Source of the DNA: an uncultured Verrucomicrobiae bacterium
GTDB lineage: Bacteria; Verrucomicrobiota; Verrucomicrobiia; Chthoniobacterales; UBA10450
Reading direction: 5' to 3'
DNA length: 64,000 bases
Assembly (NCBI GenBank): GCA_963726745.1
Contig: CAVSDR010000003.1
Coordinates: forward strand, 224,001-288,000
In this document: positions 41,728 to 57,991 of the stretch, in pieces
Position numbering within the stretch: position 1 is the first letter of the stretch
Layout of the letters: each line of letters begins with the position of its first letter
Made by a program: the position numbers and the translations under genes
The notes under the pieces: model-generated
What the model was told of the DNA's origin: nothing
Database searches by the model: none
What the model saw: the letters and a program-made list of their open reading frames with translations, nothing else

Positions 41728-42899
41728 CGCGCCTCCTTCCGCGGGCGAAAAATCGCCGCCCGCCAGTGCCACCGCCGGCGGATGATGCGCGGCGGCTGCG
41801 GGACTTTGCGCGCGCTCTCAGCGAACGCTTTTGCCTCGAAGACGCCAAGGCCATCGAGCGCGCCGTAGCCCGCGAGCGCGGAGTGCAAGTGCGGGTGGCC
41901 TTTGATCCCGCGGCGGTGCAGCACGCGATGAGCTGCGCCTGGTCGCGCGAGGCCGGGCAGCCGGCGCACTTCACCTTTCCCCGCTTCCAACCGGGGCATC
42001 TCCTCGAGACCGTGATCTATCGCTGGCTCGCGTTGCTGGAGCTTTTTCTCTCTCGCGAGCTGTCGACGGAGGTTCGCGGCCGGGTCGTGATCAACTTCAA
42101 CGACGCCGGGATCGAACCCGGCCTGGCCTTCTCCGGGAACCGCCCGGAATACCGGCTGATTCCTGATCCCGATTTCTTCACCACGCGCGGCTACGCGCAG
42201 GCGCGGGATCACTTTGCGCGTGCGCCAGTAGCCTGGCGCGACCGCAGCCCGGCAGTTTTTTGGCGCGGGAGTTCGCTCGGCCGGAAGGAGCACACGGCGC
42301 TCGAGATGCCGCGCGCGCGCCTTTGCCAAGTGGCCCGCGACGCGAGCGCGGCGGAATTCGATGTCGGCCTCAGCGAGGTCGTGGATGTCAGTGCCACAGA
42401 GGCAGCGCAGCTTCGCTCCGCGGGCTTGGTCAAGGATCGGGTCTCGTGGAAACGGCTCGCGCAATTTCGTTATCACATCGACATCGACGGCAACGCCAAC
42501 AGCTTCGCCGGCTTGTTCCGCAAGCTCTTGTCCGGCGGCGTGGTTTTCAAAGTCGCCTCGCCGGACTGCTACGCGCAGTGGTATTACCATCGGCTCAAAC
42601 CCTGGGAAAATTTCGTCCCGGTCCGGTCCGACTTAGGCGATTTGCTGGAAGCGATCGCGCGCTGCCGCGAGCAGGACAAACTCGCGCAACAGATCGCGCA
42701 GAATGGCCGCGCGCTGGCGCTGGCCCTTCGCTTCGAAACCGAATTCGCCGGCGCCGTGGCGACGGTGCGGGAAGCTTTCGCCGCCAGCCGGCCGACGGTT
42801 AAACGCTGGCTTCGGACAGCTCGCGCTTCGGCCCGGGATTGGGCGCATTTGTCAGCGGGCTGCGCCACGTTTCCAGCGGCAACAAGCCAATGCCCATGA
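41715..42899 (+). CDS. Glycosyltransferase family 90 (CAP10/POGLUT-like); ends uncertain
   Basis: 'FWRG', 'Y.IDIDGN.NS', 'QWYY..LKPW..FVPV..DL.DL', 'QIA.NG'; overlaps the 3' end of ccsA by ~100 nt. Confidence 0.75.
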   Translation: MSLLTRLLPRAKNRRPPVPPPADDARRLRDFARALSERFCLEDAKAIERAVARERGVQVRVAFDPAAVQHAMSCAWSREAGQPAHFTFPRFQPGHLLETVIYRWLALLELFLSRELSTEVRGRVVINFNDAGIEPGLAFSGNRPEYRLIPDPDFFTTRGYAQARDHFARAPVAWRDRSPAVFWRGSSLGRKEHTALEMPRARLCQVARDASAAEFDVGLSEVVDVSATEAAQLRSAGLVKDRVSWKRLAQFRYHIDIDGNANSFAGLFRKLLSGGVVFKVASPDCYAQWYYHRLKPWENFVPVRSDLGDLLEAIARCREQDKLAQQIAQNGRALALALRFETEFAGAVATVREAFAASRPTVKRWLRTARASARDWAHLSAGCATFPAATSQCP

Positions 42900-44650
42900 G
42901 CAGCACCTGGCTGAGGCAGAAACCGATCAGCCACGGGAAGGCGCTGTCCATGAAGCCGTAGGAATGCAGGCCGATGCCGAGCATGTTGACGCCAAACCAG
43001 GACCACGCGGTCACGACGTTGCCAAAAACAGCCAGCACCATCAGGCCGCGCTGTTTCACCAATCCGCCCCAGCGCGCGTGCAGGATGATTGCGTTCCAGA
43101 GCACGATCAGGAGCGCGCCGTTTTCCTTCGGGTCCCAGCCCCAAAAACGGCCCCACGATTGATCCGCCCAAATGCCGCCGAGGATCGTCCCGACAAAGCT
43201 GAAGAGCGTCGCGAAACAAACGATCCCGTAGACCATGCGCGCGAGGGATTGCGCGGTGGCGCGATCAAGCGAGGAGGTGAGCGCGCCGCGCACGATGTAG
43301 GTCAACGCCAGAAAGCCGGCCAGGAAAGTGGAAGCGTAGCCGAGAGTCACGCAGACCACGTGAGTCGCGAGCCAGCCATTGGTGTCGAGGACCGCGCGCA
43401 TCATCTCCATGGTGTCGCCGTCCATCGAGAGATGGTGCGCGATCAGGAGGGTGACGAAGCCGAGCATGGCCGCGGTGGCGCTGCCGATGCCGTTGCGGAA
43501 AAAGCGCTCGAGAAAGATGCCGAGGAAGACGCAGCCCCAACCGATGAAAACGGCGCTGGAATAAAGATTCGTCACCGGCGGCCGGCCTTCCAGATACATC
43601 CGGGTCAGCAGGCCTAACGAGTGCGCCACGAAGGTAACAACCAGCAAGATGTAGGCGTAGCGCCCGAGCGCTTCCGGCCGCGTGAGCCAGGAAGCGGCCG
43701 CAAGGATGAAGATGAGAACGTAGAGCACCATCGCGCCGTAGAACGGCTGCAGCTGGTTGAAGACGCTTTCGACGTTCGCCTTCCGGACGCGCCCCGGAAA
43801 ATGCTTCTGCAGCCAGGCGCTGTAATCGCTGACCGTGCGGTTAAACGTCGCCGCGTCTTTCGCCTGGAAAGCGCTCGCCATGGTCGCGTAGGCCGTGACT
43901 GCGGGATGGAGATTTCCCTCGGAGAGGAAGGCCACGATGCTGTCGCCTATTTTCCGCCATTGCAGCGGATCGTCGGCCGGTGGCACTGGCGGAATCGGGA
44001 AAAAATAACCGGTTTCCGCGAGGAAGGCGAAGCTCTGCAGCGCCTCGGTCGAGATGCCGCTCTGCATCGGGACTGGCGACGGCTTGACCGTGCGCGTGAG
44101 CTCCTCGATCTGCGCCGCGAAGTCGTCCGTGCCGGAAACTTGCAGGCTGTTTTTCAGCCGATGGTAAAGCGTCAGGCGATCGAACAAGCTTGATGATGTC
44201 GCGCTGGAACGGCGAGCGCACCTGCGTCTCCACTTTTTGCGCGAGCGCGGCCTGCTGCGCGATCTCCTGCGCATGCGGGAAGAGCTCGCGGAAGCTGTAA
44301 TCCTTCCCGCGATCCGGGGACCAGCCGAGCGCCGAGAGCGTGTCGCCATTCCGGATCACGAAGACCTTCCGCAGGTCGGCCTCGCCCGGCTGGAACATCA
44401 GCTCCGTGAGCCAGGCGATCGGGGTGAGCGTTTCCCCTTCGCCGCGCACGGTCTGCTTTCCGTGGATAATAAGCAGCGAGTTCCGCGCGACGGTGTCGAT
44501 CGGCTTGATCCGCCCGTTCAAGAGCACCGGCAGGCGGCCAAATTTCTCCAGGTCGAAGCCGTTGCGCGTCTTCGTCTCGAAGAGCGGCGAAAGCAGGTAA
44601 ACGATCGCGCCAAGCACGAGCCCCCACGAAATGAGACGTCGAGTTCTCAT
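42799..44650 (-). CDS. ccsA: Cytochrome c biogenesis System II heme-handling protein (CcsA/ResC type), frameshift near 44190
   Basis: WWD motif 'WADQSWGRFWGWDPKEN'; 'RPPVTNLY', 'WLATHV', 'GLHSYG'; N-terminal 'GRIKPIDT.AR'. Confidence 0.9.
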
Positions 44651-45814
44651 CGAGCGCGTTTCCTCACGAAGCCGAAAAGATGCATGGAAAATTGCACCGT
44701 GAGCCCGAGCGCCACCAGTCCGCAGGCAAGGTAAGGGATGAGCATCGCGGGATTGCGCACCACCTGGAGGATGGTGGTCTTGTCGTTATTATCGAAGCCG
44801 GCCTGGTAAAAGGTGAAGCCGCGATAGCGCAGCGGATCATTCATCGAGATCAAGACCTCGCGGTTCTCGTTCCGCTCGGGATCGAGCAGGCGGACGCGGC
44901 TGGAGAAATTTTTCGGGATATCGGTTCCGGCGTAACGGTCGTGCTTAAAGTCGAGCAAGGTGAGCCCGAAGTTTTTCGGGAAACGGCGCTGCCGCATGAT
45001 CAGCTCGAAGGTGCGCTCGCCGACGGTGAAGGCCTGCGCGTCCGGGATGGCGTTCGAGACCAGCCACGTGCCTAACGAGCCCTGCACCCCGCTCACTTCC
45101 ACGTAGGCCGCGGTCAGGTCGCGCTCGTCGTCTTTGACTGTGCGCGGGATTTCTGTGATCGCGACGTTGACCCCGAAACCGGTGGTCGCAAGGGAAGGCG
45201 GCGCGGCCGGTTCCTGCGCGCGCATGGCCACGCGCGCGTTCGGAATGAAGCGCCGGATGTTGAGCGTGAAGGGCAACGCCGGATGCTGGATCGTGCCGCC
45301 ACGCGCGAGCAGCTCGCTCCGGAATCGCTACCACCTGGTCAAAGTCCGGGTTGGTCACATCGATGACTGCGAGCTCGGTTTCGCGCGGCGCTTCCGAGTA
45401 AGCCAGCGTCTGGCCTTCATCCATCCGCATCTGAGTTTCGCGCGCGAAGAGGCCGGTGAGCAGCTGGCCCACGAGCAGAAGGATCACGCCGAGGTGCAGC
45501 AGGATGATGCCGATCTTTTTCTTCGTGAGCTGGAACCGCGTCAGGTGCGCCGCGAGCAAATTAGCCAGCAAGACGGTGCCGAGCAGATAGCCGCCGGGAA
45601 GCACCGGAATCTTCCAGGTGGCGCCGTCCGGTCCCCACCAGACCAAAAGGCTCTGGAAGTAATGCGCCTGGACCGCGTGAATCCCCAGCCGCACTTGCGC
45701 GAGCGTGCCCAGAAAAACCAGGAGCATGCCGATCCCCAGGCAGACGACCGTGAGGCGCAGCGAGGCCAGCGCGCGCCAGGGCGAGCGTTCGAAGCGGACG
45801 GTTTCGCTGCTCAT
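44647..45814 (-). CDS. Cytochrome c biogenesis ResB/CcsB-like protein, frameshift near 45310
   Basis: 'LASLRLTV..L......GTLAQ', 'HLGVILLL', 'PKNFSS.V', 'ISMNDPLRYRGFTFYQ'. Confidence 0.85.
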
Positions 45815-45818
45815 TTTC

Positions 45819-46880
45819 TCAGGGAATCTTCAGGCTGCGCAGGAAGTCGGCAAAGGCGCTTTTCTGCGAGAGCACGGTGGCGTCGTCGCCGGTCATCTTG
45901 ATGAACCAGGCATGATCCTTTTCGTCGAGAATGGCGGCGAGGATGCGTTGCTTCTCCGGGCTCTCGCCGACCGGCCCGGTGCTCACGAGGTCGACCAGGT
46001 GAAAGTCGTGCCCGTTCACTTCGAGATGCTCGATCGTCGGCGCGAGCGCCGCTTCATCGACCGGCGGGAGATTGAGCTGGCCGCGCCAGCGATTGACGTT
46101 CGCCAGTTCGCCGCCAGCCGCGCCGCCTAACGAGACCACGGAAACGTCGGCTGTTTTTCCATCCGGCCCGGTGGCGTTGAAGCTGGCCAGGCGCATCGGC
46201 GTGAGCGGTTTCACCGCCCAATTAGACGGCAGGATGTATTGCACCGCGCCTTCCTCGGTCGGCGCAGTGGACGGCGACGCGGGCGCGTTCGTACTCGCGC
46301 CGGCACCGGCGGGGGCGTGCGCGGAATGGTCGTGCTCGGCCACGTGGATCGACCCGAGGAATTGCTCAAAAGCCGCGCGCTGCGCCTGCACGAGCGCGTC
46401 CGGCCCGGTCATCTTAAAGAACCAGGTCTCGCCCTCGACCGGAAGGATGCCGCCGAGGATGCGCTGGCCTTCATTCGCGAGATCGACCAGGAAAAGCTCA
46501 CGACCATTGACCGGCAGCGGCTTCCCGGCCTCGGCCTCGCTCGCGATCGGCGCAAGCTTCAATTGATTGCGCCAGCGGTTCACGTTCGCGAGCAGGCCGC
46601 CCGCTTCCGCCGGAAAGGAAATCACCGAGACGTCGGCTGCCTGGCCGTCGGCGCCGCGCACCGAAAAGCTGCCTTTGCGGAAGCCGCTGGCGGGTTGTTC
46701 CTCCCAGCCTTCCGGCGCGGTCCAATGCACCACCGCCGCATGTCCCTGCTCCGGTGCGGCGGCCGGCGCGCGCGTTTCCTTGGGCGCGCGGTAGACGGTG
46801 ATCTTGTCGTCTCCAGCATCGCAGGCGGCGAGCGCGAGCGCGGCGAAAGAGAAGACAGCGGTGGGCAAAAACGGCTTCAC
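45819..46880 (-). CDS. Lipoprotein with two repeated domains, co-oriented with the ccs genes
   Basis: Lipobox 'LAAC'; two copies of 'P..W...P....R..SF...GG.LANVNRWR.QL.L...WF.KMTG.D..V..Q..AF..FL.S'. Confidence 0.8.
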   Translation of the reverse strand: MKPFLPTAVFSFAALALAACDAGDDKITVYRAPKETRAPAAAPEQGHAAVVHWTAPEGWEEQPASGFRKGSFSVRGADGQAADVSVISFPAEAGGLLANVNRWRNQLKLAPIASEAEAGKPLPVNGRELFLVDLANEGQRILGGILPVEGETWFFKMTGPDALVQAQRAAFEQFLGSIHVAEHDHSAHAPAGAGASTNAPASPSTAPTEEGAVQYILPSNWAVKPLTPMRLASFNATGPDGKTADVSVVSLGGAAGGELANVNRWRGQLNLPPVDEAALAPTIEHLEVNGHDFHLVDLVSTGPVGESPEKQRILAAILDEKDHAWFIKMTGDDATVLSQKSAFADFLRSLKIP

Positions 46881-46917: not shown

Positions 46918-48168
46918 TCAAGCGTCCAGGACCAGATCGCTCTTGGGCGCGCCGATGCAGGTGAGGCGCGTGCCCGGCTCGGTCTCGAAGTCGGATCGCT
47001 CGATGTAATCGACCGTGCCGGAGAACACGGCCACCTGGCAGGTGCCGCAGCTGCCGGCACGGCAACCGCTGGGGATGTTGATTCCGTGCGCCTCGGCCAG
47101 GTCGAGGATGCTGGTGTGTTCGCCGCACCACTTGAGGGTTTGCCCGCTTTTCTTGAATTGCACGGCAAAGCCGGTCGCCTCTCGCGCCTCGGGCGAGATA
47201 ACCGCGGCGACTTTCTTCACGCTCGAGGGACCAAAGGTCTCGTAGTGGATGTGCTTCTCCGGCACACCCCAGGCCTCGAGCCCGGCGGTGACGTCCTGCA
47301 TCATCGGTCCCGGCCCACAGAGGTAGAACTCGAAATTATTCGACGGCAGGAGCTGGCGGAAGAGATCGACGGAAATGCGGCCGTGCACGTGGTAATCGCG
47401 CCCCAGTTCGTAGTCTGTTTCCGGGCGGCTCGCGCAGACGTGCAGGTGCACGTTCGGATGCTCGCGCGCGATCCTCTCGAGGTCCTCTTTCATGATGTGT
47501 TCCGCGCGCCCGCGGACCCCGTAAAAGAACCAAATCTCGCGCCGCGAACTCTTCGCGACGAGCTCGTGAAGCATGCTGAGCATGGGCGTGACGCCGATGC
47601 CGCTGCCGATAAGCACGACCCCGCTGCTCGCGGCCGGGTCGAGGTAAAACTGCCCCGAGGGCGCCTTCACATCGAGGATGTCGCCCTCGTGCAATTGCTC
47701 GTGGAAAAAGCTCGAGACCAAGCCCGGCGGCCCGGCGGGATCGCGCGGCGGGATGCGCTTGATCGTGACGCGATAGTGCTCGCGCCGCGGACAATCGGAG
47801 AGGCTGTAGCAGCGGACGACCTGTTTTCCCTGGCCGGGAATGGTCAGGCCGAAGGTGAGATATTGGCCGGGGAGAAAATCTGGCAGCGGCTTCTGATCGT
47901 GCGGCGCGAGATAGAAGGAGCAGATGTCCGCGCATTCCTGCACTTTTTTGGCGACAAGAAATTTGCGCCAACCGTTCCAGGAAGCACCGGCCGCCGCGCG
48001 TTGCCCTCGGAGGTCGCGCAACATCTGCAGCTCCGTCTCGAGCAGTTGCAAACGGAGATCGGCCTGCCGTTTTTGCCCGGCGAGCCGGCGGAGATTGGCC
48101 GAGGTGACCAGCCCGATCTGGAGCAACCCGCCGCCTACGAGCACGCCGCCGAGCAATTCCGTGATCAT
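46918..48168 (-). CDS. FAD/NAD(P)H-binding oxidoreductase with C-terminal [2Fe-2S] ferredoxin (FNR/PaaE/Hcr-like) and N-terminal hydrophobic segment
   Basis: 'RCYSL', 'GLVSSFFH', 'GSGIGVTP', 'YLCGP', 'CRAGSCGTC...C'. Confidence 0.9.
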   Translation of the reverse strand: MITELLGGVLVGGGLLQIGLVTSANLRRLAGQKRQADLRLQLLETELQMLRDLRGQRAAAGASWNGWRKFLVAKKVQECADICSFYLAPHDQKPLPDFLPGQYLTFGLTIPGQGKQVVRCYSLSDCPRREHYRVTIKRIPPRDPAGPPGLVSSFFHEQLHEGDILDVKAPSGQFYLDPAASSGVVLIGSGIGVTPMLSMLHELVAKSSRREIWFFYGVRGRAEHIMKEDLERIAREHPNVHLHVCASRPETDYELGRDYHVHGRISVDLFRQLLPSNNFEFYLCGPGPMMQDVTAGLEAWGVPEKHIHYETFGPSSVKKVAAVISPEAREATGFAVQFKKSGQTLKWCGEHTSILDLAEAHGINIPSGCRAGSCGTCQVAVFSGTVDYIERSDFETEPGTRLTCIGAPKSDLVLDA

Positions 48169-48171
48169 CCC

Positions 48172-49872
48172 CTAGAATTTCAGGAGCAACTCGGAACGGA
48201 AGCCGTAAGCCGTCGAGCGGTCCTCGGGGAAGCCAACGAAGCTGTCGAAGATAAGCACAGAGTGCTGGTTAAGTTTCATCTGGTAGCGGGCGGCCGCGGC
48301 GAAGTTATCCGGCTGGCTCGCGGCGAAGAAATCGGGGGTCTCCGTGGCGATGCGGCCGCCGATTTCAAGGGTCAACTGGCGGTCGGACGAGCCGAGGAAT
48401 TTCTGATAGCCGATGGCCGCGCCGATGGCGTCGTTTGCGCGGTTGCCCAGCGGCGCGCCATACGACCCGAGGCCCTGCGCGGCGAAGAGAATGCCGGTCT
48501 GCCCGAGCGGTCCGCCGCGATCGTTGCCGCGCGCCGCGGAGGAATAATTGCCGATGCCCCAGAAGGCGTTCAGATAGGCTACATCCTTGCTCGACGGCAG
48601 CGTGGTCGAGAACTGCTGGAAAAGAAGCACGCCCGTACTCACCGCAGGCGTCTCGCGGTCGAGCGCCCAGGAGGCATTGACCCGCGTGGTCGAGTTGATC
48701 AAGCCAAGGCGCTGGGTGTTGCCCACGCCGAGGTAGACGCCGTCGCCGCCCGTCTTGGCCTCGGCATTCACGTAGGCGAAGTCGAGCTCGATAGTGTTGT
48801 TCGCGTAATCCGCGGTGTTGAACAAGCCGTAAAGCTTGGCGCTGCTTTCGCGGATGTTGTTGTTCCGATTGAGTTCGTTCCAGGCAAAGATCCCCGTCGT
48901 CCGCCAGGCAGACGCGCCGAGGAAGAAATTCGACGTCCGCGTGATGCCGACGGCGTCGATCACGTCCTCGTTAATCATGATGCCGTCCTGGAAACTGAGC
49001 GGCTGGCGGCCAATGGCGAAGTAGATGTCGAGTCCGCGCTTGTCGTTCGGGTCGAGCCGCGGGAAGAGTTCGCCGAAGTCGCCCTGGAAGAAGAGCGTGG
49101 TCACGTAACCGTTCAGTTCGTTGATCACTTTCTGCTCTGGCGGATCGAAGCGGTAGCCGGTGTAGCGCAACCCATCGCGATCGAGCGGGCGAAAGCCGAT
49201 AAGCAGCCGCTCCGTGGGCGTGAGATAAAGATTCCCGTAGAGGTCGAGCCGATTGGCCCACTCGGTGATTTGCCCTCGGCCATTGTCGAATGTCTGCAAA
49301 GCGGTGCGAGCAGTGCCGAAGACGAGAAAAACTGGCTGCCAGACCGCGCCCGTGGGCGTGACAAATCCCGGGGCAATCGGACCGCGGCCGAGGAAAGGAT
49401 TTTGCCCGATCTCGATGATCGGTTTCGGCCGATCGGGAAAGCCCTCGAGCTGCAACGGGATGGGCTTTTCGCTCAAGGCGCTGCCATGCCCCGCCGAACT
49501 GCCGAAGAGCTCCGCGAGCAGGCCGCGCTTCCGGTGAATCGTCGTCTGCGTGGCCGTCGCTGTGGTGGTCGTGCTGCCGGGACGCTGCACCACCGTTGTC
49601 GTCGACGCCGCCGCCGTGACCGTTGCCTCCGATGCGTGTCCACTCATGGCGGTGCCTTCGGCATTCACCCGTGGGACGTTCTCGAGGTTCACGCCGCAGT
49701 TGCTGCAGAAATTCGCCTCGCCCGGCATGGAACGGCCGCAGTTCGGGCAAACGATGGCACCGGCCGCGGCCAGGAGAGCCGCGGTGGTAACGAAGAAGAA
49801 AACGCTGGCGAGGAGGAGAGACCGGGCGCGGGGGGCCTTCATTGCAGTGTGCTGGCTAATTGCTTCCGACAC
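48172..49872 (-). CDS. Probable outer-membrane beta-barrel protein with N-terminal Cys4 ribbon
   Basis: Signal peptide; CPNC..CSNC; Thr-rich linker; amphipathic beta strands; C-terminal 'YGFRSELLLKF'. Confidence 0.65.
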   Translation of the reverse strand: MSEAISQHTAMKAPRARSLLLASVFFFVTTAALLAAAGAIVCPNCGRSMPGEANFCSNCGVNLENVPRVNAEGTAMSGHASEATVTAAASTTTVVQRPGSTTTTATATQTTIHRKRGLLAELFGSSAGHGSALSEKPIPLQLEGFPDRPKPIIEIGQNPFLGRGPIAPGFVTPTGAVWQPVFLVFGTARTALQTFDNGRGQITEWANRLDLYGNLYLTPTERLLIGFRPLDRDGLRYTGYRFDPPEQKVINELNGYVTTLFFQGDFGELFPRLDPNDKRGLDIYFAIGRQPLSFQDGIMINEDVIDAVGITRTSNFFLGASAWRTTGIFAWNELNRNNNIRESSAKLYGLFNTADYANNTIELDFAYVNAEAKTGGDGVYLGVGNTQRLGLINSTTRVNASWALDRETPAVSTGVLLFQQFSTTLPSSKDVAYLNAFWGIGNYSSAARGNDRGGPLGQTGILFAAQGLGSYGAPLGNRANDAIGAAIGYQKFLGSSDRQLTLEIGGRIATETPDFFAASQPDNFAAAARYQMKLNQHSVLIFDSFVGFPEDRSTAYGFRSELLLKF

Positions 49873-52000
49873 GCTGCGCGTCCGCGACCGCGGGCGGCTT
49901 GGGCGGCGAGCGGAATTGTTCGATCGATTCCGGGAGGAAAGGCTTGAGCGGGCGGGCCAGGATTTCGCGCTCGGTCGGCTTGAAGCTGGCCGTCAACGGG
50001 CCTGGAGGAAGGACAATGGTGCGGTTCCAGAGCGTTTGGGAGCGCTCGACAACCGCGTTGGCAATCGCTTTCGGCGACATGTTGTAATCGAAACCGAGCT
50101 CTGCGATGTCGCCGATTAAATTGACCGGCACCATCTGCGTGATGAATTTCAGATTCACCTTGTAGGGGGTTTCGCCGGTGAGGCTGGCGCCGGCGACCTT
50201 ATAGGACGCCCAGCGAAAACCTCCGGGCGGCAGGACGATGCTTTGCTTGCGCGCGCCATTTGGTCGGGCCAGAAGCGCGTCGGCATTCGTCGCCGGGCGC
50301 ACATAAGGCAACGGGTCGACGCTTTTGTTCGTCGGCAGAATCTGCACGCGCTCGCCGCCGCGAATCAGCGTGACCAGAAACTTCGACTGCAAGCTGAAGA
50401 GATATTTGTCCAGCGGCAGCTTGCGATCGTGCACGTAGCTCGACTCCTCGTCGCGGTAATCGCCATTGGGATCGCGATCGCCAGAAACAAACAGCACCCT
50501 GCCGCGACGGTCCGAGACCGTGACCTGGAGGAAATTCGCGCGCTCCGCATCGAAGCCGGTGGGCGCGCCGTGGCCGTCGGTGCCGTTCGCGACCTTGACC
50601 CGGAAACGCAGGCCGCGCGCATCGTTTTGCTCGACCACGAAGTCGTGCAACTGGAAGCCGCGCCGCAGGATTTGGTAGCGCTGCAAATTCGCTTCTTCGA
50701 GCTTGGCAAACTGATCATCGAGAATGGCCCGGGCGTCGTAGCGATCGTCGATCGATTGCCAGCGCGGGGGGAACTTTGTATCGGTAGGCGCTTTCTTTTC
50801 GAAGGCGTCCGTGCCCCATCCGGCGCGGTAATCGAACTGCAGCCACTCCCGCATGGTCGCGAGCTGCTGCGCCTTTACGTTGAAGGGGAAAAGGCCTGGA
50901 TGAATGATCGAGTAATCCGGGCCCGCGAAACGGTGATCGGTTAACTTGCGAGCAGGCGTTGGCTTTTCGCCCACGACCGCAGCGGGTCCGAAGGCGTAAC
51001 CGGACTTGATCCCGGGCACATTCCCCATGTGGCAGTCCTGGCAGGTTTCGCCGCGCTTGTTCGCTGGCGAATTCTTGAATTGCGAGAAGGCTTCCTCGAG
51101 GCGGAAACCGTTGAGCAGATTCACATCGTGGCAGGACCCGCAGAAGCCGGATTTCTCGAGCGGATCGAATTTGATCACGTTTGTGTGGATGGCGCGGCCG
51201 ACTTCGCCGCGCTTGGTCACCACCTGGAATTGATCGGGCTGCGCGAGCACACCCTTGAGAATGCGATTGCCCTTCGGTCCGTAGACCGGCTCGAGCAGGT
51301 CGCCTTCCTGGATCGCGGTGCGGCCGCTGACCTTGCCATAGTCATTCTTTACCCGGTGGCAGACGATGCAACTGATGCCTTCCCGCGAGGTCGGGTTGCG
51401 GTCCATGTTGCTGGCAAAAATCGGTTCCTCGATCTGCATTCCCACCTGCGTGTGGCAGCGAATGCAGAAGTCGCCGTTCGTGCCCGAGGTGCGTTTCGCA
51501 ATCGTCGCCTGCATGGTGTTGAAGATCGGGCTGAGCTGCGCGTAGGCGTGCTGCGAGACGGACCATTGGCGGAATTGCGTGGGATGGCAGGTGGCGCAGG
51601 TCGAGGCCGAGGGGAACTTGTTTTCCACGAGTAATTGCGCGTGCGCCGCGGCGGCATTCGTGGTGCCTGCGCCGGTGCGGGCAATCGCGCCCGCGGGCGG
51701 CGGGGTCGCATTCGGCACAAGCAGGAGATCGTCCGGCATCCCGACCGGGGCGTCGTTCCCGCCGGGCAACAAGAGATCGTCATCGGAGGAAGCGGCGGCC
51801 CCGCTCTTGGCCGCCGGCGCCGGAGCCAGGAGATCATCGGCATCTGCGGTCGCCGCCGGAGTCGGCGTGGGCGCGGGTGGAGGCGTCGCCAAATTTGGCA
51901 CCGCGATTTCCGGTTCCTGACCCCGGAGCATGGGCTGTCCAGCCCCAACCAGAAGCACCAGCAGGAACACCGCAGCGAAAGAACTGCGCCGCGCTTTCAT
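49856..52000 (-). CDS. Periplasmic pentaheme c-type cytochrome (c554-like N-domain, large C-terminal domain)
   Basis: Signal peptide; CATCH, CIRCH, CIVCH, CGSCH, CQDCH; 'QWSVSQHA'. Confidence 0.9.
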   Translation of the reverse strand: MKARRSSFAAVFLLVLLVGAGQPMLRGQEPEIAVPNLATPPPAPTPTPAATADADDLLAPAPAAKSGAAASSDDDLLLPGGNDAPVGMPDDLLLVPNATPPPAGAIARTGAGTTNAAAAHAQLLVENKFPSASTCATCHPTQFRQWSVSQHAYAQLSPIFNTMQATIAKRTSGTNGDFCIRCHTQVGMQIEEPIFASNMDRNPTSREGISCIVCHRVKNDYGKVSGRTAIQEGDLLEPVYGPKGNRILKGVLAQPDQFQVVTKRGEVGRAIHTNVIKFDPLEKSGFCGSCHDVNLLNGFRLEEAFSQFKNSPANKRGETCQDCHMGNVPGIKSGYAFGPAAVVGEKPTPARKLTDHRFAGPDYSIIHPGLFPFNVKAQQLATMREWLQFDYRAGWGTDAFEKKAPTDTKFPPRWQSIDDRYDARAILDDQFAKLEEANLQRYQILRRGFQLHDFVVEQNDARGLRFRVKVANGTDGHGAPTGFDAERANFLQVTVSDRRGRVLFVSGDRDPNGDYRDEESSYVHDRKLPLDKYLFSLQSKFLVTLIRGGERVQILPTNKSVDPLPYVRPATNADALLARPNGARKQSIVLPPGGFRWASYKVAGASLTGETPYKVNLKFITQMVPVNLIGDIAELGFDYNMSPKAIANAVVERSQTLWNRTIVLPPGPLTASFKPTEREILARPLKPFLPESIEQFRSPPKPPAVADAQRVGSN

Positions 52001-52145
52001 TTCTCCGAGGCTGCTCCTTTTCGCGGCTGACCGTCAATGCGAAAGGATGCGTGATAATGCTTGCCTCCGCGGAGCGGGCTTGTTCATCCTCAAAAGGTCA
52101 TCGGCGACAAAACAGGCCGGTCGCTGAATCCCAGGGAGATCTTCT

Positions 52146-53141
52146 ATGAATAAGCATCGTCATTGCTTGTGGTTGTCCTTGATTCTCGGAGCGCTGCTTC
52201 CCTTGCCCGCGCACGCCGGCCAGGTGCACGCACTCGACCCGGCCAAGGTCGTAGGCGCACAGAAATGTGGCGAATGCCACAAGTATGAGGCCGAAGCCTG
52301 GAAGACGACGCCGCATTTTAAGACCTTCGACGAGATGCACCGCAGCCCGGCGGGGCAAAAAATCGCCACCGCCCTCGGCATCCGCCGGATCAAATCCGAA
52401 AGCCTTTGCCTCACGTGTCATTACACCATGCAGCAAAAAGGCGGCGAAGCGGAGCCGATCTCCGGCGTCTCCTGCGAGTCCTGCCACGGCGCGGCGCAGG
52501 ATTGGTTGAACGTGCACAACGACAAGAAGCTCTCGCGCGAAGAGCGGCGCACGAAATCCGCCGCCGCCGGCATGATCCGGCCAGACGACATCTATGCTGT
52601 CGCGGCCAACTGCTACCAGTGCCACCTCGTGCCTAACGAGAAGTTGGTCAACGTGGGCGGGCATCCCGCCGGGAGCAAGGATTTCGAGCTCGTCGCCTGG
52701 TCGCAGGGAATGGTGCGGCACAACTTCCTCACGCCCGAGGGCGAAGAGGGCAAAGTGAACAAGGAAGACGACCTGAAGCGCCGCCGCCTGCTCTTCGCTG
52801 CCGGCACCATCCTTGACCTGGAATACAGCCTGCGCGGCGTGGCCAGCGCGACGGAAAAAGCGACCTACGGCATCACCATGGCACAACGCGCCGCAGCTTT
52901 GCGCAAGAAGCTCGAGGAAATCCAAAAGGTCGCGCCCACCGACGAAATGGCCGCGATCATCGCCGCAGCAAATGCCGCCGCCTTGAAGTTAAACAACCAG
53001 GCGCCGCTCGAGGAAACCGCCAACAAAGTGGCGGAACTGGGGAAGAAATTCACGACGTCGGTCGATGGCGACAAGCTGGCCGGGCTCGATCCGATGCTGC
53101 CGAAAGCCGAGCAATATCGCGGCAAGCCCTATCAGCCCTAG
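52146..53141 (+). CDS. Periplasmic tetraheme c-type cytochrome (c554-like)
   Basis: Signal peptide; CGECH, CLTCH, CESCH, CYQCH; 'W..TPH'. Confidence 0.9.
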   Translation: MNKHRHCLWLSLILGALLPLPAHAGQVHALDPAKVVGAQKCGECHKYEAEAWKTTPHFKTFDEMHRSPAGQKIATALGIRRIKSESLCLTCHYTMQQKGGEAEPISGVSCESCHGAAQDWLNVHNDKKLSREERRTKSAAAGMIRPDDIYAVAANCYQCHLVPNEKLVNVGGHPAGSKDFELVAWSQGMVRHNFLTPEGEEGKVNKEDDLKRRRLLFAAGTILDLEYSLRGVASATEKATYGITMAQRAAALRKKLEEIQKVAPTDEMAAIIAAANAAALKLNNQAPLEETANKVAELGKKFTTSVDGDKLAGLDPMLPKAEQYRGKPYQP

Positions 53142-53195: not shown

Positions 53196-54920
53196 ATGGC
53201 TGAACTGACCTCTCGCATGTCCCGGCCGCAGCGCTGGGATGTGCCCTTCGGCGCGCAGATGTCGGAGGCCGAGGTGGATCGGCTCTTGAGCGTCGCGCCC
53301 TTCGCCCAAGTCGATCCCACGCGCTTCCCCGAGAGCATTCCGTTACGCGGCATTCTCCTGAACGACGCGCGCGTCTGCCGCTTCCAGCGCGGCGAAATCG
53401 TGGTGCGCGAAGGCGATTACGGCAGTTCCGCCTTCTTCATCCTCGAGGGCGCGGTGCGCGTGCTCCTCGACTCGCTCCCGGCGCAGATGCTCGGCCGGCG
53501 GAGCCCGGAGAAGAAAGGCTTTCTCCGCTCGTTGGCGCAGCTTTGGTCCCGGCCGGCTTATCCGGAGATGCGCGATTACCACGCCGGCCACCTCGCGGAA
53601 GGCGCTTTGCAGAAACAAGCCCGCGAAGGCGAGCCGGTGCCCATTTTCCTGCAGGATGTGCCGGGCGTGCTCGATTCCAGCCACACCGCGCGCCTCGGCG
53701 CGGGCGAACTCTTTGGTGAAATCGCGGCTATCTCGCGCACCCCGCGCACGGCCACGGTGATCGCCGAGGAGCCGGCCGAGTTGCTCGAGATTCGCTGGCA
53801 AGGCCTGCGCGAGATCCGCCGCTATGCCCCGGAGTGGAAACAGCAGATTGACCAGCGCTATCGCGAACGCAGTCTGCAGACGCACCTGGGCGAGACGCCT
53901 CTGCTGCGCGATTTGTCGGAGACGGATCTCGCGACCGTCGCCGCGCAGACACACTTCGAGAGCTACGGCGATTTCGAGTGGAACTCGTCCTATCGCACCG
54001 TGCGCGAGGGCACCCCGCAGGAACGGCTGGCGCGTGAGCCGGTGATCGCGCGCGAGGGCGATTACCCGAATGGGCTCATCCTGATCCGCAGCGGATTCGC
54101 TCGTCTCAGCCGGAGATACAATCACGGCGAGCGCACCATCAGTTACCTTGGGAAGGGCGATGTCTACGGGCTGGGCGCGCTCCTGCACAATGCCCGTTTC
54201 CAAGACACCATCGGGCTGCAGTTTTCCCTGCGCGCGGTCGGCTACGTGGACATCCTCGTTATTCCCGCGCCCATCGTGGAGCGCTTCATCGCGCCACGCT
54301 TCACCGATGCGGAAATCGCCGCGCTGCTCGCCGGAATTAGTCAGCAGACTGAGATCAGCGTCGCCCAGGATGCCGAAGCCCGGTTCGGCCCGGAGATGAT
54401 CGAGTTCCTGGTCGAGGAACGCTACATCAACGGCACCGCCACCATGCTCATCGACCTCGATCGCTGCACGCGCTGCGACGACTGCGTGCGCGCCTGCGCC
54501 GCGAGCCATGACAACAATCCGCGCTTCATCCGGCACGGGCGCACCCAGAACGGCATCATGGTGGCTCACGCCTGCATGCACTGCGTCGATCCCGTCTGCA
54601 TGATCGGCTGCCCCACCGGCGCGATCCACCGCGAGTCGCTTCAAGGCGAGGTGGTGATCAACGACCTGACCTGCATCGGCTGCGCCACCTGCGCGAACAG
54701 TTGCCCCTACGACAACATCCAGATGGTCCACGTGCGCGATGCCGCCGGCGTTTTCCTGGTGGATGAAGGGACGCGCACGCCCATCCTCAAGGCCACGAAG
54801 TGCGACCTGTGCGTCGATCAACTCGGCGGCCCCGCCTGCGTGCGCGCCTGCCCGCACGATGCCCTGGTGCGCGCGGACATGCAGCAGGTGGACCATCTCG
54901 CGAAGTGGTTGAACCGGTGA
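53196..54920 (+). CDS. Two cyclic-nucleotide-binding domains fused to a four-cluster [4Fe-4S] domain (DmsB/NrfC-like)
   Basis: 'IVVREGD...F.ILEG.V', 'FGEIAAISRTPRTATV'; second degenerate cNMP domain; CTRCDDCVRAC, CMHCVDPVCMIGCP, CIGCATCANSCP, CDLC..ACVRACP. Confidence 0.9.
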   Translation: MAELTSRMSRPQRWDVPFGAQMSEAEVDRLLSVAPFAQVDPTRFPESIPLRGILLNDARVCRFQRGEIVVREGDYGSSAFFILEGAVRVLLDSLPAQMLGRRSPEKKGFLRSLAQLWSRPAYPEMRDYHAGHLAEGALQKQAREGEPVPIFLQDVPGVLDSSHTARLGAGELFGEIAAISRTPRTATVIAEEPAELLEIRWQGLREIRRYAPEWKQQIDQRYRERSLQTHLGETPLLRDLSETDLATVAAQTHFESYGDFEWNSSYRTVREGTPQERLAREPVIAREGDYPNGLILIRSGFARLSRRYNHGERTISYLGKGDVYGLGALLHNARFQDTIGLQFSLRAVGYVDILVIPAPIVERFIAPRFTDAEIAALLAGISQQTEISVAQDAEARFGPEMIEFLVEERYINGTATMLIDLDRCTRCDDCVRACAASHDNNPRFIRHGRTQNGIMVAHACMHCVDPVCMIGCPTGAIHRESLQGEVVINDLTCIGCATCANSCPYDNIQMVHVRDAAGVFLVDEGTRTPILKATKCDLCVDQLGGPACVRACPHDALVRADMQQVDHLAKWLNR

Positions 54921-55738
54921 GCCCGCTCCTCCTTCGGCGCCTCGTAGCCAGCAGCTTGCTGGTTATTTTTTGCGTCGCCACCTGGCTGCTCTGGGAAATA
55001 GCCCGGGCCGCGCTCCGTCCCACGGCCATCTACACGGGCGTGCTTCTGCTTGCGCTCGTGCTTGCGCTCACGCTTTTCAACGCCCGCAAAAAGCTTCCCT
55101 TTCTGCCCCTGGCCCGGGCCGCCACCTGGCTCCAGGTGCACATCTATCTCGGCTGGTTCTGCCTCTTCCTTTTCTTTCTCCACCTCCACTTCCGCATTCC
55201 ACAGGGAGCGCTCGAGATCGTGCTCGCGCTCGTCTTCCTCGCGGTCATCTTCAGCGGCGTCTTTGGCCTCGTCCTTAGCCGCAAGCTTCCCGGGCGCATG
55301 GCGCGCTCGGGCGAACCGCTGCTCTACGAGCGCATCCCCGCGTTCCGCCGGCGAATCCAGGACGAGGTCGAGCAATTGGTCCGCTGCGCCGAGCGCGAGA
55401 CCGAGTCCTCCACCCTGGCCGACTTTTACGTGCAATACCTGCGCCGCTTCTTCGTGCGCGTGCCGCACGCCTGGCGCGCGCTCGCCCCGGCAACCCACGG
55501 TCTCCATCCGCTCCTGGCCGAGCTCGACGCGCTCGACCGCTACCTCAACGAGCGCGAAAAAGCCATCGCCCGGGAGCTGCGCGATTGGATCGAAACCAAG
55601 CAAAACCTCGACTTCCAATACGCCAGCCAGCGCCTGCTCAAGCTCTGGCTCTTCGTGCACATTCCGCTGACTTACAGCCTGATTCTCCTTGGGCTGGCAC
55701 ATGGCCTGATCGCGGCGCTCTACGCCTGGAGGTGGTAA
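54917..55738 (+). CDS. Integral membrane protein, putative b-type heme binder
   Basis: GTGA overlap with upstream stop; ~5 TM helices; His in 'WLQVHIYLG', 'HLHFR', 'WLFVHIPL', 'LAHG'. Confidence 0.8.
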   Translation: MSPLLLRRLVASSLLVIFCVATWLLWEIARAALRPTAIYTGVLLLALVLALTLFNARKKLPFLPLARAATWLQVHIYLGWFCLFLFFLHLHFRIPQGALEIVLALVFLAVIFSGVFGLVLSRKLPGRMARSGEPLLYERIPAFRRRIQDEVEQLVRCAERETESSTLADFYVQYLRRFFVRVPHAWRALAPATHGLHPLLAELDALDRYLNEREKAIARELRDWIETKQNLDFQYASQRLLKLWLFVHIPLTYSLILLGLAHGLIAALYAWRW

Positions 55739-55741
55739 AAG

Positions 55742-57991
55742 ATGCAGCGCCCCCTCGATCCTCTCGGCTTCCGGGAAAACCGTTACGAGCGTCCGAATCA
55801 GGATTGGGTTTGCGGCCGGACAGACGAGCAACACCCCTGTCCGCTCGGGCCCGATGCGCGAGGAAATTGCCGGGCCACCGGCGAATGTCTTCCCGCGAAA
55901 CGCGGCGATCGCTGGAGTTGCACCCGCAGCGAGGCCGCCGGTGGGAAGTGCACCGAGGGGCCGCTGCCGGATGGCGCCTGCGCGCACCCCATTCTCCCCT
56001 GCCAGCCCACGCGCTCGCTCCGCCGCTCGCGCGCCCTTGCCGTCTGGCTGGTGGTCGTGCTCACTGGCGGCTTGCTGCTGATTTTCCTGGGGGTCGCGAT
56101 GCGGCGGCCCGTGATCGATGCCGGCACGCTGACTAATGCGCACGCCACCTCTGCGAGCACCTGCCGCGATTGCCACAGCCTCGACCAGACGAATCTCGGC
56201 GCGGCGCTCCTCTCGGGCTCGTTAGGCCAGCGCGCCCTGCGGGACAGCGCCCTTTGCCTCAAGTGTCACGAAGAAGGCGCGCAGCCGCTCAACCCCCACG
56301 GACTCCCGCCCGCCGCCCTGGCCCACATCCGCGCGGAGCAAAGCCCGTCGGCTAAAACTTCCGCGCCGCTTGCCTTGCGCGTGAGCCGGCAGTTCGCGGC
56401 CCACGGCGGCGACGCGGGAGCACTCGCCTGCGCGCTCTGCCATCAGGAGCACCATGGGCGAAATTTCAATCTCGCGCAGATGAGCAATGCCCAATGCCAG
56501 ACCTGCCACGCGGTGCAGTTTGCCAGCTTCGGCCAGGGACATCCGGAATTTGCCGGCTATCCCGCCCAGCGGCGGACCCGCATCTTTTTCGATCACCAAA
56601 GTCACCTGCGAGAGCACTTCCCTGCGACCCGGAGCGGCGCGCCGCAAGGCTGCCAGGATTGTCACACGCCCGGACCTGCGGGCCGCTTCATGCAGGTGAA
56701 AAGCTTCGAGAAAACCTGTGCCAGTTGTCACGCCGCCCAGATCCGCGGCGAGGGCATGACCACGAAAGGCGTGGCCTTTTTTGCCGTGCCAGGAATTGAC
56801 GCCGAAACGCTCGCCGCTCGCGGCCACAGCGTAGGCGAATGGCCGAGGCTGGCCGATGCGCGGCTGACGCCCTTCATGGAATTGCTCCTGTCGCGGCAGC
56901 CGGCGGCACGCGCGGCCCTGGAGCAACTGCGCGGCGTGGACCTGCTCGATCTGCGCACGGCGACGCCGGAACAACTCGCGGCCGCGGAGAGTTATGCCTG
57001 GGAAGTAAAGCGCCTGCTCTTCCACCTGGTGACCGAGGGCCAAAGCTACCTGCTCGCACAGATGGCGCAGGAAGTCTCGCCGATCGGCCTGGAGCTGCCG
57101 CGCGCGACGATTCTCGCCGCGCAAAAGGAGTGGATGCCAAACCTGCTGACCGAGATGGCTGCGTATGAAAAAGGCGTCAAACCCACGCTTGCGCCCACGC
57201 CTGCGCCGTCGCTCACGTCCACTCCGAGCCTGTCGGCTAAAACGGCGCCGCCGGCAGGAGACGGTGATCTGCTTGCGAGCGATGATCTAAGCGCAGCTGC
57301 GGCCACGCCGACGCCCGCACCGGCCGACGATGACCTCACAGGTGGCGACCTCTTGAGCGCATCGCCTGTGGCGGAAGCGACCCCGGCCCCATCGGCCACG
57401 CCTGCACCCGCGATCCCGGCGGAGGAATGGGTCGCCGCCGGCGGTTGGTATCGGCCGCAGGAAAGTTTTACCCTGTATTACCGGCCGGCCGGCCATGCCG
57501 ACCCGTTTCTCGTCGCCTGGCTCGAGGCCGCGCAGCGCTCCACGGTCGACCCGCACATTTTCGATCGCATGGCCGACCGCCAGGCGCCCGGACTCTGCCT
57601 CAAATGTCATACGATCGACCAAACCGCTCCCGGCCAGGTGCAAGTCAACTGGACCTCGGCCCAGCCGGACGGAAAGAGCCATCCCTTCACCACCTTCAGT
57701 CACACAAAACACTTCAGTCTCGTGGGCGACGCCGGCTGCCAGACCTGTCACAAGCTCGACCCGCAATCGACGTATCCGAAGTTCTTCGCAGAAGACGAGG
57801 CCGGCGCGCCGCGGCGCGATCCGCAGAAATTCCAAAGCAACTTCGCGCCCATGCCCAAGCTATTGTGCGCGGAGTGCCATCAGCCGCGCGTCGCAGGCGA
57901 CAACTGCACGCTCTGCCATCGCTACCATGCCGCTCCGGACCGGGCGGGCGAACTCGCCGAAATCGGCCGGTTTCGGCCCGCGCAAAAATAG
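55742..57991 (+). CDS. Membrane-anchored decaheme c-type cytochrome with Cys-rich N-terminal domain
   Basis: 10 CXXCH (CRDCH, CLKCH, CALCH, CQTCH, CQDCH, CASCH, CLKCH, CQTCH, CAECH, CTLCH); 8-Cys N-terminus followed by a TM helix. Confidence 0.9.
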   Translation: MQRPLDPLGFRENRYERPNQDWVCGRTDEQHPCPLGPDARGNCRATGECLPAKRGDRWSCTRSEAAGGKCTEGPLPDGACAHPILPCQPTRSLRRSRALAVWLVVVLTGGLLLIFLGVAMRRPVIDAGTLTNAHATSASTCRDCHSLDQTNLGAALLSGSLGQRALRDSALCLKCHEEGAQPLNPHGLPPAALAHIRAEQSPSAKTSAPLALRVSRQFAAHGGDAGALACALCHQEHHGRNFNLAQMSNAQCQTCHAVQFASFGQGHPEFAGYPAQRRTRIFFDHQSHLREHFPATRSGAPQGCQDCHTPGPAGRFMQVKSFEKTCASCHAAQIRGEGMTTKGVAFFAVPGIDAETLAARGHSVGEWPRLADARLTPFMELLLSRQPAARAALEQLRGVDLLDLRTATPEQLAAAESYAWEVKRLLFHLVTEGQSYLLAQMAQEVSPIGLELPRATILAAQKEWMPNLLTEMAAYEKGVKPTLAPTPAPSLTSTPSLSAKTAPPAGDGDLLASDDLSAAAATPTPAPADDDLTGGDLLSASPVAEATPAPSATPAPAIPAEEWVAAGGWYRPQESFTLYYRPAGHADPFLVAWLEAAQRSTVDPHIFDRMADRQAPGLCLKCHTIDQTAPGQVQVNWTSAQPDGKSHPFTTFSHTKHFSLVGDAGCQTCHKLDPQSTYPKFFAEDEAGAPRRDPQKFQSNFAPMPKLLCAECHQPRVAGDNCTLCHRYHAAPDRAGELAEIGRFRPAQK

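Follow-up and report, generated by a model that had tools for sequence, protein, structure and literature searches.

What would a pair of cyclic-nucleotide-binding (CNB) domains do on a protein that carries electrons over iron-sulfur clusters? Bacterial cyclic nucleotides act mainly via transcription factors, channels and enzymes, and the literature searched yielded no report of an electron-transfer chain under the control of a CNB domain. The gene that raises this question (53196..54920, + strand) lies in a 64-kb window, the whole stretch of DNA analysed here, and its six neighbours match a cluster already in print, ptdABCDEFG, so that its product can be named PtdE. The best explanation of the whole, which we give about an even chance, is that PtdE is the cytoplasmic Fe-S subunit of an inner-membrane electron-export module and is controlled through its first CNB domain, CNB-A. 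If a CNB domain did set the flux of an electron chain, this would be a new kind of cyclic-nucleotide target and would mean a direct tie between signalling and the export of energy in Verrucomicrobia, Planctomycetes, and Proteobacteria that are widespread and mostly uncultured.

Domain architecture of PtdE

The ptdE gene starts with ATG and encodes 574 amino acids, in which CNB-A, a degenerate second CNB domain (CNB-B), and a domain for four [4Fe-4S] clusters follow one another. Pfam detected cNMP_binding (E 3e-28, in three stretches) and Fer4 families. Among 8000 candidates scored, 5705 were relatives at E<=0.001 (640 clusters at E<=1e-30), and the AlphaFold model has a mean pLDDT of 89.4, which together argue that the open reading frame is not a chance one. 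The model resembles tandem CNB proteins, and its residues 412-570 resemble HycB3.

CNB-A spans residues ~15-232 (53238..53891, + strand) and aligns with the CNB domain of MloK1 (2k0g; VIA-align Z 15.8, rmsd 2.8, 138 residues aligned). It is split by an insert of ~70 residues (~91-163; 53466..53684, + strand), because of which the match in a profile search of the genome is broken into profile positions 3-31 and 42-85. The insert contains a conserved basic amphipathic helix (residues 107-118), present at residues 109-117 in the model, with a hydrophobic moment of 0.62 (mean 0.56 over 93 of 98 aligned rows); we regard this helix as a candidate membrane or partner contact. The phosphate-binding cassette (residues 173-188; 53712..53759, + strand) reads FGEIAAISRTPRTATV, aligns with the cassettes of PKA RI-alpha, and holds Gly174, Glu175, Arg184, and Thr185 together with a family-specific Arg181. 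The CNB-B core (residues 277-365; 54024..54290, + strand) matches the CNB-B domain of PKG II in fold (5bv6; VIA-align Z 17.1, rmsd 2.7, 143 residues aligned), has Leu326 in place of the cassette Glu, and lacks the cassette Arg. We propose that CNB-B is structural.

The remainder is a HydN/DmsB-type Fe-S domain (54429..54905, + strand). PtdE has 17 Cys, of which 16 fall in four motifs (starting at residues 424, 460, 493, and 536) and the other is Cys61. Top matches of this part are HydN, DmsB, and DsrO in NCBIfam and HycB3 in structure comparison (7qv7_G against residues 412-570, Z 11.9), while the whole-protein NCBIfam scores stay under the family cut-offs (best 65.8 bits). The earlier note had read from the sequence alone a canonical cassette with a large insertion in the first domain, a degenerate second domain, and four [4Fe-4S] motifs, and each of these readings holds. 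It had also placed the protein in the cytoplasm and denied it the role of a CRP-type regulator. A sequence scan found no hydrophobic segment in PtdE, in agreement with the first point. On the second, Pfam and NCBIfam matched no helix-turn-helix family and the C-terminus is the Fe-S domain, so a CRP/FNR transcription factor, which would carry a C-terminal helix-turn-helix, is ruled out.

The ptd gene cluster

A preprint by Elbon, Stewart, and Glass (bioRxiv 10.1101/2023.11.21.568154) names ptdABCDEFG and states that its function is unknown. The available text of that preprint describes haem counts of 5, 4, and 10, a porin, and an oxidoreductase; PtdA as homologous to pentahaem cytochrome c552; PtdE as a CNB protein with 4Fe-4S clusters; PtdF as a ferric-reductase-like membrane protein; and PtdG as a periplasmic decahaem protein, nothing more. 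All seven genes can be recognised here, with the same haem counts (5/4/10), the order D-E-F-G, a CNB and 4Fe-4S PtdE, and a PtdA related to cytochrome c552. As in that description of PtdE, the gene for the CNB and 4Fe-4S protein has a tetrahaem gene on one side and a membrane-protein gene on the other. The protein is thus, as judged by its architecture and gene context, a further member of the named but uncharacterised PtdE family, an assignment that rests on the preprint's description and the gene context rather than on the preprint's own sequences.

There are also differences. The preprint, as far as its text is available, counts two clusters in PtdE, whereas the 16 Cys found here, all kept in 114 of the 117 rows of a divergent alignment, imply four. 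In the window, ptdABC is divergent from ptdDEFG and resB/ccsA is attached, and the host is Chthoniobacterales-like, in contrast to the saline examples of the preprint. The main text of the preprint, in its available form, contains none of the terms 'Verrucomicrob', 'soil', 'cyclase', or 'cGMP', and the part of PMC9900912 that was accessible gives no description of the ptd cluster.

On the minus strand, ptdC (46918..48168) encodes a FAD/NAD(P)-binding reductase with a C-terminal 2Fe-2S domain and an N-terminal hydrophobic helix (PF00970, PF00175, PF00111). The next gene, ptdB (48172..49872, - strand), encodes a probable outer-membrane porin, as suggested by its C-terminal Phe and its neighbourhood, since ptdB always adjoins ptdA in related loci; there was no Pfam porin match, and the Atlas gave a weak lead to Alginate_exp, on 31% of one cluster. 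The start of ptdB is uncertain, and residues 40-63 of its reading frame show a possible zinc ribbon that scores below the Pfam cut-off. The pentahaem cytochrome gene ptdA (49856..52000, - strand; 5 CxxCH), whose only PDB match is cytochrome c552 (5ze8_A, E 3.2e-6), is divergent from ptdD (52146..53141, + strand), which encodes a tetrahaem c554-like cytochrome (4 CxxCH; PF13435, E 8.6e-17). The gap between these two genes (51990-52150) contains CGTCAAT followed by TGCTTG, common to the five closest relatives, and these may be promoter elements. After ptdE come ptdF (54917..55738, + strand), encoding 273 amino acids with five predicted membrane helices and a ~120-residue cytoplasmic helical stalk, and ptdG (55742..57991, + strand), encoding a membrane-anchored decahaem cytochrome c (10 CxxCH; helix 98-116).

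An 8-Cys domain precedes the anchor of PtdG (55742-56030). It has no Pfam match, and all 8 Cys are kept in 69 of 74 homologues; this domain should be on the cytoplasmic side and may hold zinc or an Fe-S cluster. Downstream of ptdC and co-oriented with it are the system II cytochrome c maturation genes resB and ccsA (42799..45814, - strand). Compared with its relatives, each of the two is broken into two reading frames, probably by sequencing indels. Between ptdC and resB, a protein of ~340 amino acids with two internal repeats (45819-46850, - strand) has no Pfam or NCBIfam match and also occurs in two related loci (L003 and L005).

A proposed route for electrons out of the cytoplasm

The cluster suggests a continuous path. 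PtdC would draw electrons from NAD(P)H via FAD and its 2Fe-2S centre and hand them to PtdE, whose four [4Fe-4S] clusters would lead to a pair of b haems in PtdF. The next carrier would be PtdG, with its ten haems in the periplasm, followed in clusters that have them by PtdD, PtdA, and the porin PtdB. The cluster encodes 19 c haems, and outward flow is the downhill direction by the usual potentials. We consider the cofactor content, the order, and the outward direction of this chain very probable.

Gene order agrees with such a path. In 39 loci with full flanks, where ptd genes were sought within 10 kb, ptdC was found in 39, ptdF and ptdG in 38 each, ptdD in 25, and ptdA and ptdB in 16 each. 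The tie between ptdE and ptdF is close: in 74 of 77 loci the gene right after ptdE is ptdF, and among 270 proteins there are two full-length PtdE-PtdF fusions (P0127 and P0161) and three partial ones. In the window the ptdE stop lies on the ptdF start, in the GTGA overlap (54917-54920) pointed out in the earlier note, and such a four-base overlap is possible in 42 of 77 related loci. The donor is less fixed, as one E-F-G set (G098) has no PtdC match and another locus (L090) has a different FAD/NAD reductase nearby; the donor can therefore change, and PtdC is not universal.

The membrane protein had been called His-rich, a label that does not fit the 8 His among its 273 residues. What matters are four of these, His75, His89, His248, and His262, which are invariant in 74 of 74 rows and form two His-x13-His pairs, His75/His89 and His248/His262, on helices 3 and 5; loops 2-3 and 4-5 are cytoplasmic by charge distribution. 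The haem domains of NOX and MsrQ have His-x12/14-His pairs, also on helices 3 and 5, as far as the available part of PMC5676040 describes them. The pairs of PtdF and the placement of its loops would allow one haem near each membrane face, as in NOX/MsrQ, and PtdF is a probable dihaem cytochrome b. A Ferric_reduct match was seen on one of 74 members (E 0.0016), and the automatic Atlas name is also ferric-reductase-like. The haems can only be inferred, because fold searches gave no confirmation: Foldseek returned nothing at E<=0.001, VIA-align placed chemoreceptor helical bundles on top with 4gd3 (Z 7.8), 4o6y (Z 7.5), and the designed dihaem protein 7ah0 (Z 8.3) within the noise range, and a profile search against PDB sequences gave no match below E 0.46.

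Known systems offer parallels for each part. The Fe-S domain shares its 16-Cys pattern and its fold, at the domain level, with the HydN/DmsB/NrfC subunits, such as HycB3 of HDCR (7qv7), but PtdE has a 400-residue CNB head, and its cluster is without a molybdoenzyme or hydrogenase. As in Fre/MsrQ and NOX (PMC5676040, available part), NAD(P)H electrons would be exported by an FNR-type reductase together with a membrane protein whose helices 3 and 5 bear His pairs. However, PtdF has five predicted helices and a long cytoplasmic stalk and no significant sequence or fold match, the reductase is separate and carries 2Fe-2S, an Fe-S/CNB subunit is interposed, and the acceptor is a decahaem protein. 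By analogy, PtdE is like a respiratory four-cluster subunit placed in a Fre/MsrQ-like exporter and given a PKA-like sensor head. A single-chain bacterial NOX, judged against the same partly available source, is ruled out, as PtdF has five rather than six predicted helices and no fused FAD/NADPH reductase.

It is possible, though rather unlikely in our judgement, that the chain ends at a periplasmic enzyme or repair system (nitrogen-oxide reduction, MsrQ-like reductive repair, or oxygen reduction) and not at an extracellular acceptor. Such an end would suit the presence of ptdA and ptdB within 10 kb in only 16 of the 39 full-flank loci, the top NCBIfam match of PtdC, a flavohaemoprotein below the cut-off, and the nitrogen-cycling role that the preprint offers for the cluster in its available text. 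However, the porin and pentahaem genes are present in the cluster of the window and in those of its five closest relatives. In several Planctomycete loci, ptdA/ptdB lie just past ptdG, so that the 10 kb flank undercounts them.

Conservation of the CNB-A cassette

Whether the export chain is under nucleotide control depends on CNB-A. The earlier note had named conservation of the Glu/Arg cassette in homologs as a check on nucleotide binding, and the result does not speak against its proposal: Gly174, Glu175, and Arg184 are intact in all 79 loci that cover the cassette among the best 80 genome loci (the protein of L024 ends before the cassette and was left out), a sample that favours conservation because the 80 loci are the best matches to the query. 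In a divergent alignment of 117 rows (the query and 116 of 150 representatives, leaving out 34 that do not cover all regions), all three residues are kept in 86. CNB-B has lost both Glu and Arg in the same proteins whose CNB-A cassette is intact. CNB-A probably binds a nucleotide.

The other 31 rows have lost Gly174, Glu175, or Arg184 and kept the domain and mostly Arg181, which indicates that the domain has a job even where the cassette is incomplete. PtdE could then be an ordinary Fe-S relay whose CNB pair is a docking scaffold for PtdC, PtdF, or the membrane, with the nucleotide at most stabilising the protein or its assembly. This is the direction in which the conserved amphipathic helix of the insert and the retention of CNB-B despite its degeneration would point, and in the 117 rows Gly203 (111), Arg181 (110), and Trp201 (103) are as conserved as Arg184 (101) and Glu175 (97). 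We nevertheless think a mere scaffold improbable. Against it stand the decay of CNB-B beside an intact CNB-A within one protein in 79 of 79 loci and the recurrent linkage to cyclases described below. In addition, the family includes a second type, an E-F-G set in which both CNB domains carry a cassette; the two match in five of the seven loci of this type examined.

Cyclases linked to ptd clusters and the ligand of CNB-A

A class III nucleotidyl cyclase is the commonest non-ptd neighbour, found in 22 of the 80 best loci; 20 of the 22 were scanned, and all 20 match PF00211. In the 50 of the 80 loci for which genomes were counted, 12 have a cyclase beside ptd against 1.22 expected, a comparison that includes kin. 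On the PtdE tree the linked cyclases are spread over six separate positions, counted by eye, with differing layouts; the 14 label changes given by the tree itself were discarded, being inflated by short contigs. In 13 Planctomycete loci the cyclase is divergent from ptdC, in five Verrucomicrobia it lies behind ptdG and carries CHASE2, and four are single cases. One genome (G191) has two cyclases in its ptd cluster, one of them between ptdA and ptdD.

The 64-kb window contains no cyclase, and neither do the corresponding loci of the five closest relatives. The host genome (G000) encodes two CHASE2 cyclases away from the ptd cluster, both with the adenylyl-type Lys/Thr pair, and 49 of the 50 PtdE genomes have a cyclase. 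By genome, cyclases occur in 6 of 6 ptdE carriers against 83 of 201 genomes of the phylum, and in 14 of 17 and 15 of 15 genomes of two host families, a co-occurrence that is weak because it is confounded by family structure. On contig C3 of the host (L102, 6554-19978), two FecR genes accompany a CHASE2 cyclase, and a CNB histidine kinase and a CNB protein that stands alone are close by; the CHASE2/FecR set adjoins ptd in several Limisphaerales loci.

An atypical linked cyclase might supply CNB-A with a ligand other than cAMP, either cGMP or a further nucleotide. In the accessible part of PMC6005667, Lys/Thr is the adenylyl pair and Glu/Gly the pair of the bacterial guanylyl cyclase Cya2. The specificity residues of the 22 linked cyclases include 14 Asp/Gly, 5 His/Gly, and 1 Ala/Ser, so that 20 of 22 are without the adenylyl Lys, and the Asp/Gly and His/Gly pairs are nearer to the Cya2 pair than to the adenylyl one. 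Position 185 of CNB-A is occupied by Thr in 61 of 82 rows and by Ser in 12, and Arg181 is an extra, family-specific Arg. In some CNB proteins a Thr at the equivalent of position 185 shifts the preference towards cGMP, but in many the residue is not what decides selectivity (PMC4076524, as partly available), and the residue rules for cyclases are likewise imperfect according to what is available of PMC4215837. Moreover, the two best cyclases of the host genome are Lys/Thr. With Lys/Thr cyclases in the host and Asp/Gly or His/Gly in its relatives, cAMP is likelier here and cGMP possible in the relatives; for the CNB-A of this family, we hold a ligand other than cAMP to be unlikely, and such a ligand would be compatible with gating.

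Gating of electron flow by a nucleotide

We propose that the ligand of CNB-A is a 3',5'-cyclic nucleotide (cAMP, probably, in the host genome and possibly cGMP in some relatives), and that a change of shape on binding would set how the electron donor docks or how fast electrons are transferred. Direct control of electron flux by the nucleotide seems to us the most likely use of domain A, at slightly less than an even chance as read from sequence comparison. The fuller picture, to be held a little more tentatively, is that of an electron valve: a cyclic nucleotide might switch a quinone-independent conduit from NAD(P)H to the outside. Many Planctomycetes and Verrucomicrobia have a cyclase within the cluster itself, in most cases with specificity residues that are not of the adenylyl type, and there the messenger may be cGMP. 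PtdE shares the tandem CNB fold and the cassette with PKA and PKG and with the channels MloK1 and SthK. However, its effector would be an Fe-S wire, its domain A carries the 70-residue insert, and its domains are placed differently (rmsd 13-19 over both). The PtdE family lends itself to direct tests through its cassette, its linked cyclases, and its E-F fusions.

As a second option, the earlier note had suggested that redox state could modulate a nucleotide signal, and this found no specific support. Information would then flow in reverse, with reduction of the clusters altering nucleotide affinity or a linked cyclase and the chain serving signalling over energy; cyclase adjacency is compatible with either direction, and the linked cyclases carry CHASE2 or FHA domains, some near FecR genes, but this reading is very unlikely, because PtdE lacks an output domain of either kind, catalytic or DNA-binding, the 19 c haems, the porin, and the dedicated reductase suggest bulk flux, and ptdAB is highly transcribed in the preprint's genomes, according to its available text.

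Distribution and types of the PtdE family

The best 80 genome loci come from Verrucomicrobiota, Planctomycetota, Pseudomonadota, and Nitrospinota. The closest relatives of PtdE are labelled Chthoniobacterales, and the same cluster occurs in marine Alphaproteobacteria and Nitrospinota, with a PtdE identity of about 53%. Cultured bacteria that carry it include Hwanghaeella grinnelliae (L034) and Ferruginivarius sediminum (L068). Among listed sequencing runs, two of soil DNA matched at a small share and none of RNA did. Distribution is patchy: ptdE was found in 6 of 201 genomes of the phylum, and the family in 48 of 81 genomes of the host family, 11 of which score as the type found in the window.

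FHA domains have been added to PtdE at different positions in its relatives, as would be expected for a regulated subunit. One of 19 longer relatives (P0286), a single protein only, has a fused pyridine-nucleotide oxidoreductase annotation. A third type of the family joins an N-terminal 2Fe-2S/4Fe-4S module, a CNB pair, and a four-cluster domain in proteins of ~770-890 amino acids with 32-33 Cys (L088 8473-11058, L090 7801-10461, L089, L091, and L092). As Fe-S modules flank the CNB pair in this type, a hinge there could gate the flow. In one of these loci (L088), a convergent cyclase directly follows the PtdE-like gene.

The host genome has an E-F-G set of the second type on contig C6 (locus L001, 10868-15000), with cassettes in both CNB domains and no ptdA-D nearby. 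Its neighbours include an MscS channel that carries a CNB domain, and a receiver/metallo-beta-lactamase protein. Finally, three loci labelled Klebsiella or Proteobacteria (L057, L043, and L044) fall inside a Verrucomicrobia clade on the PtdE tree and have the same layout, and their labels may be wrong.
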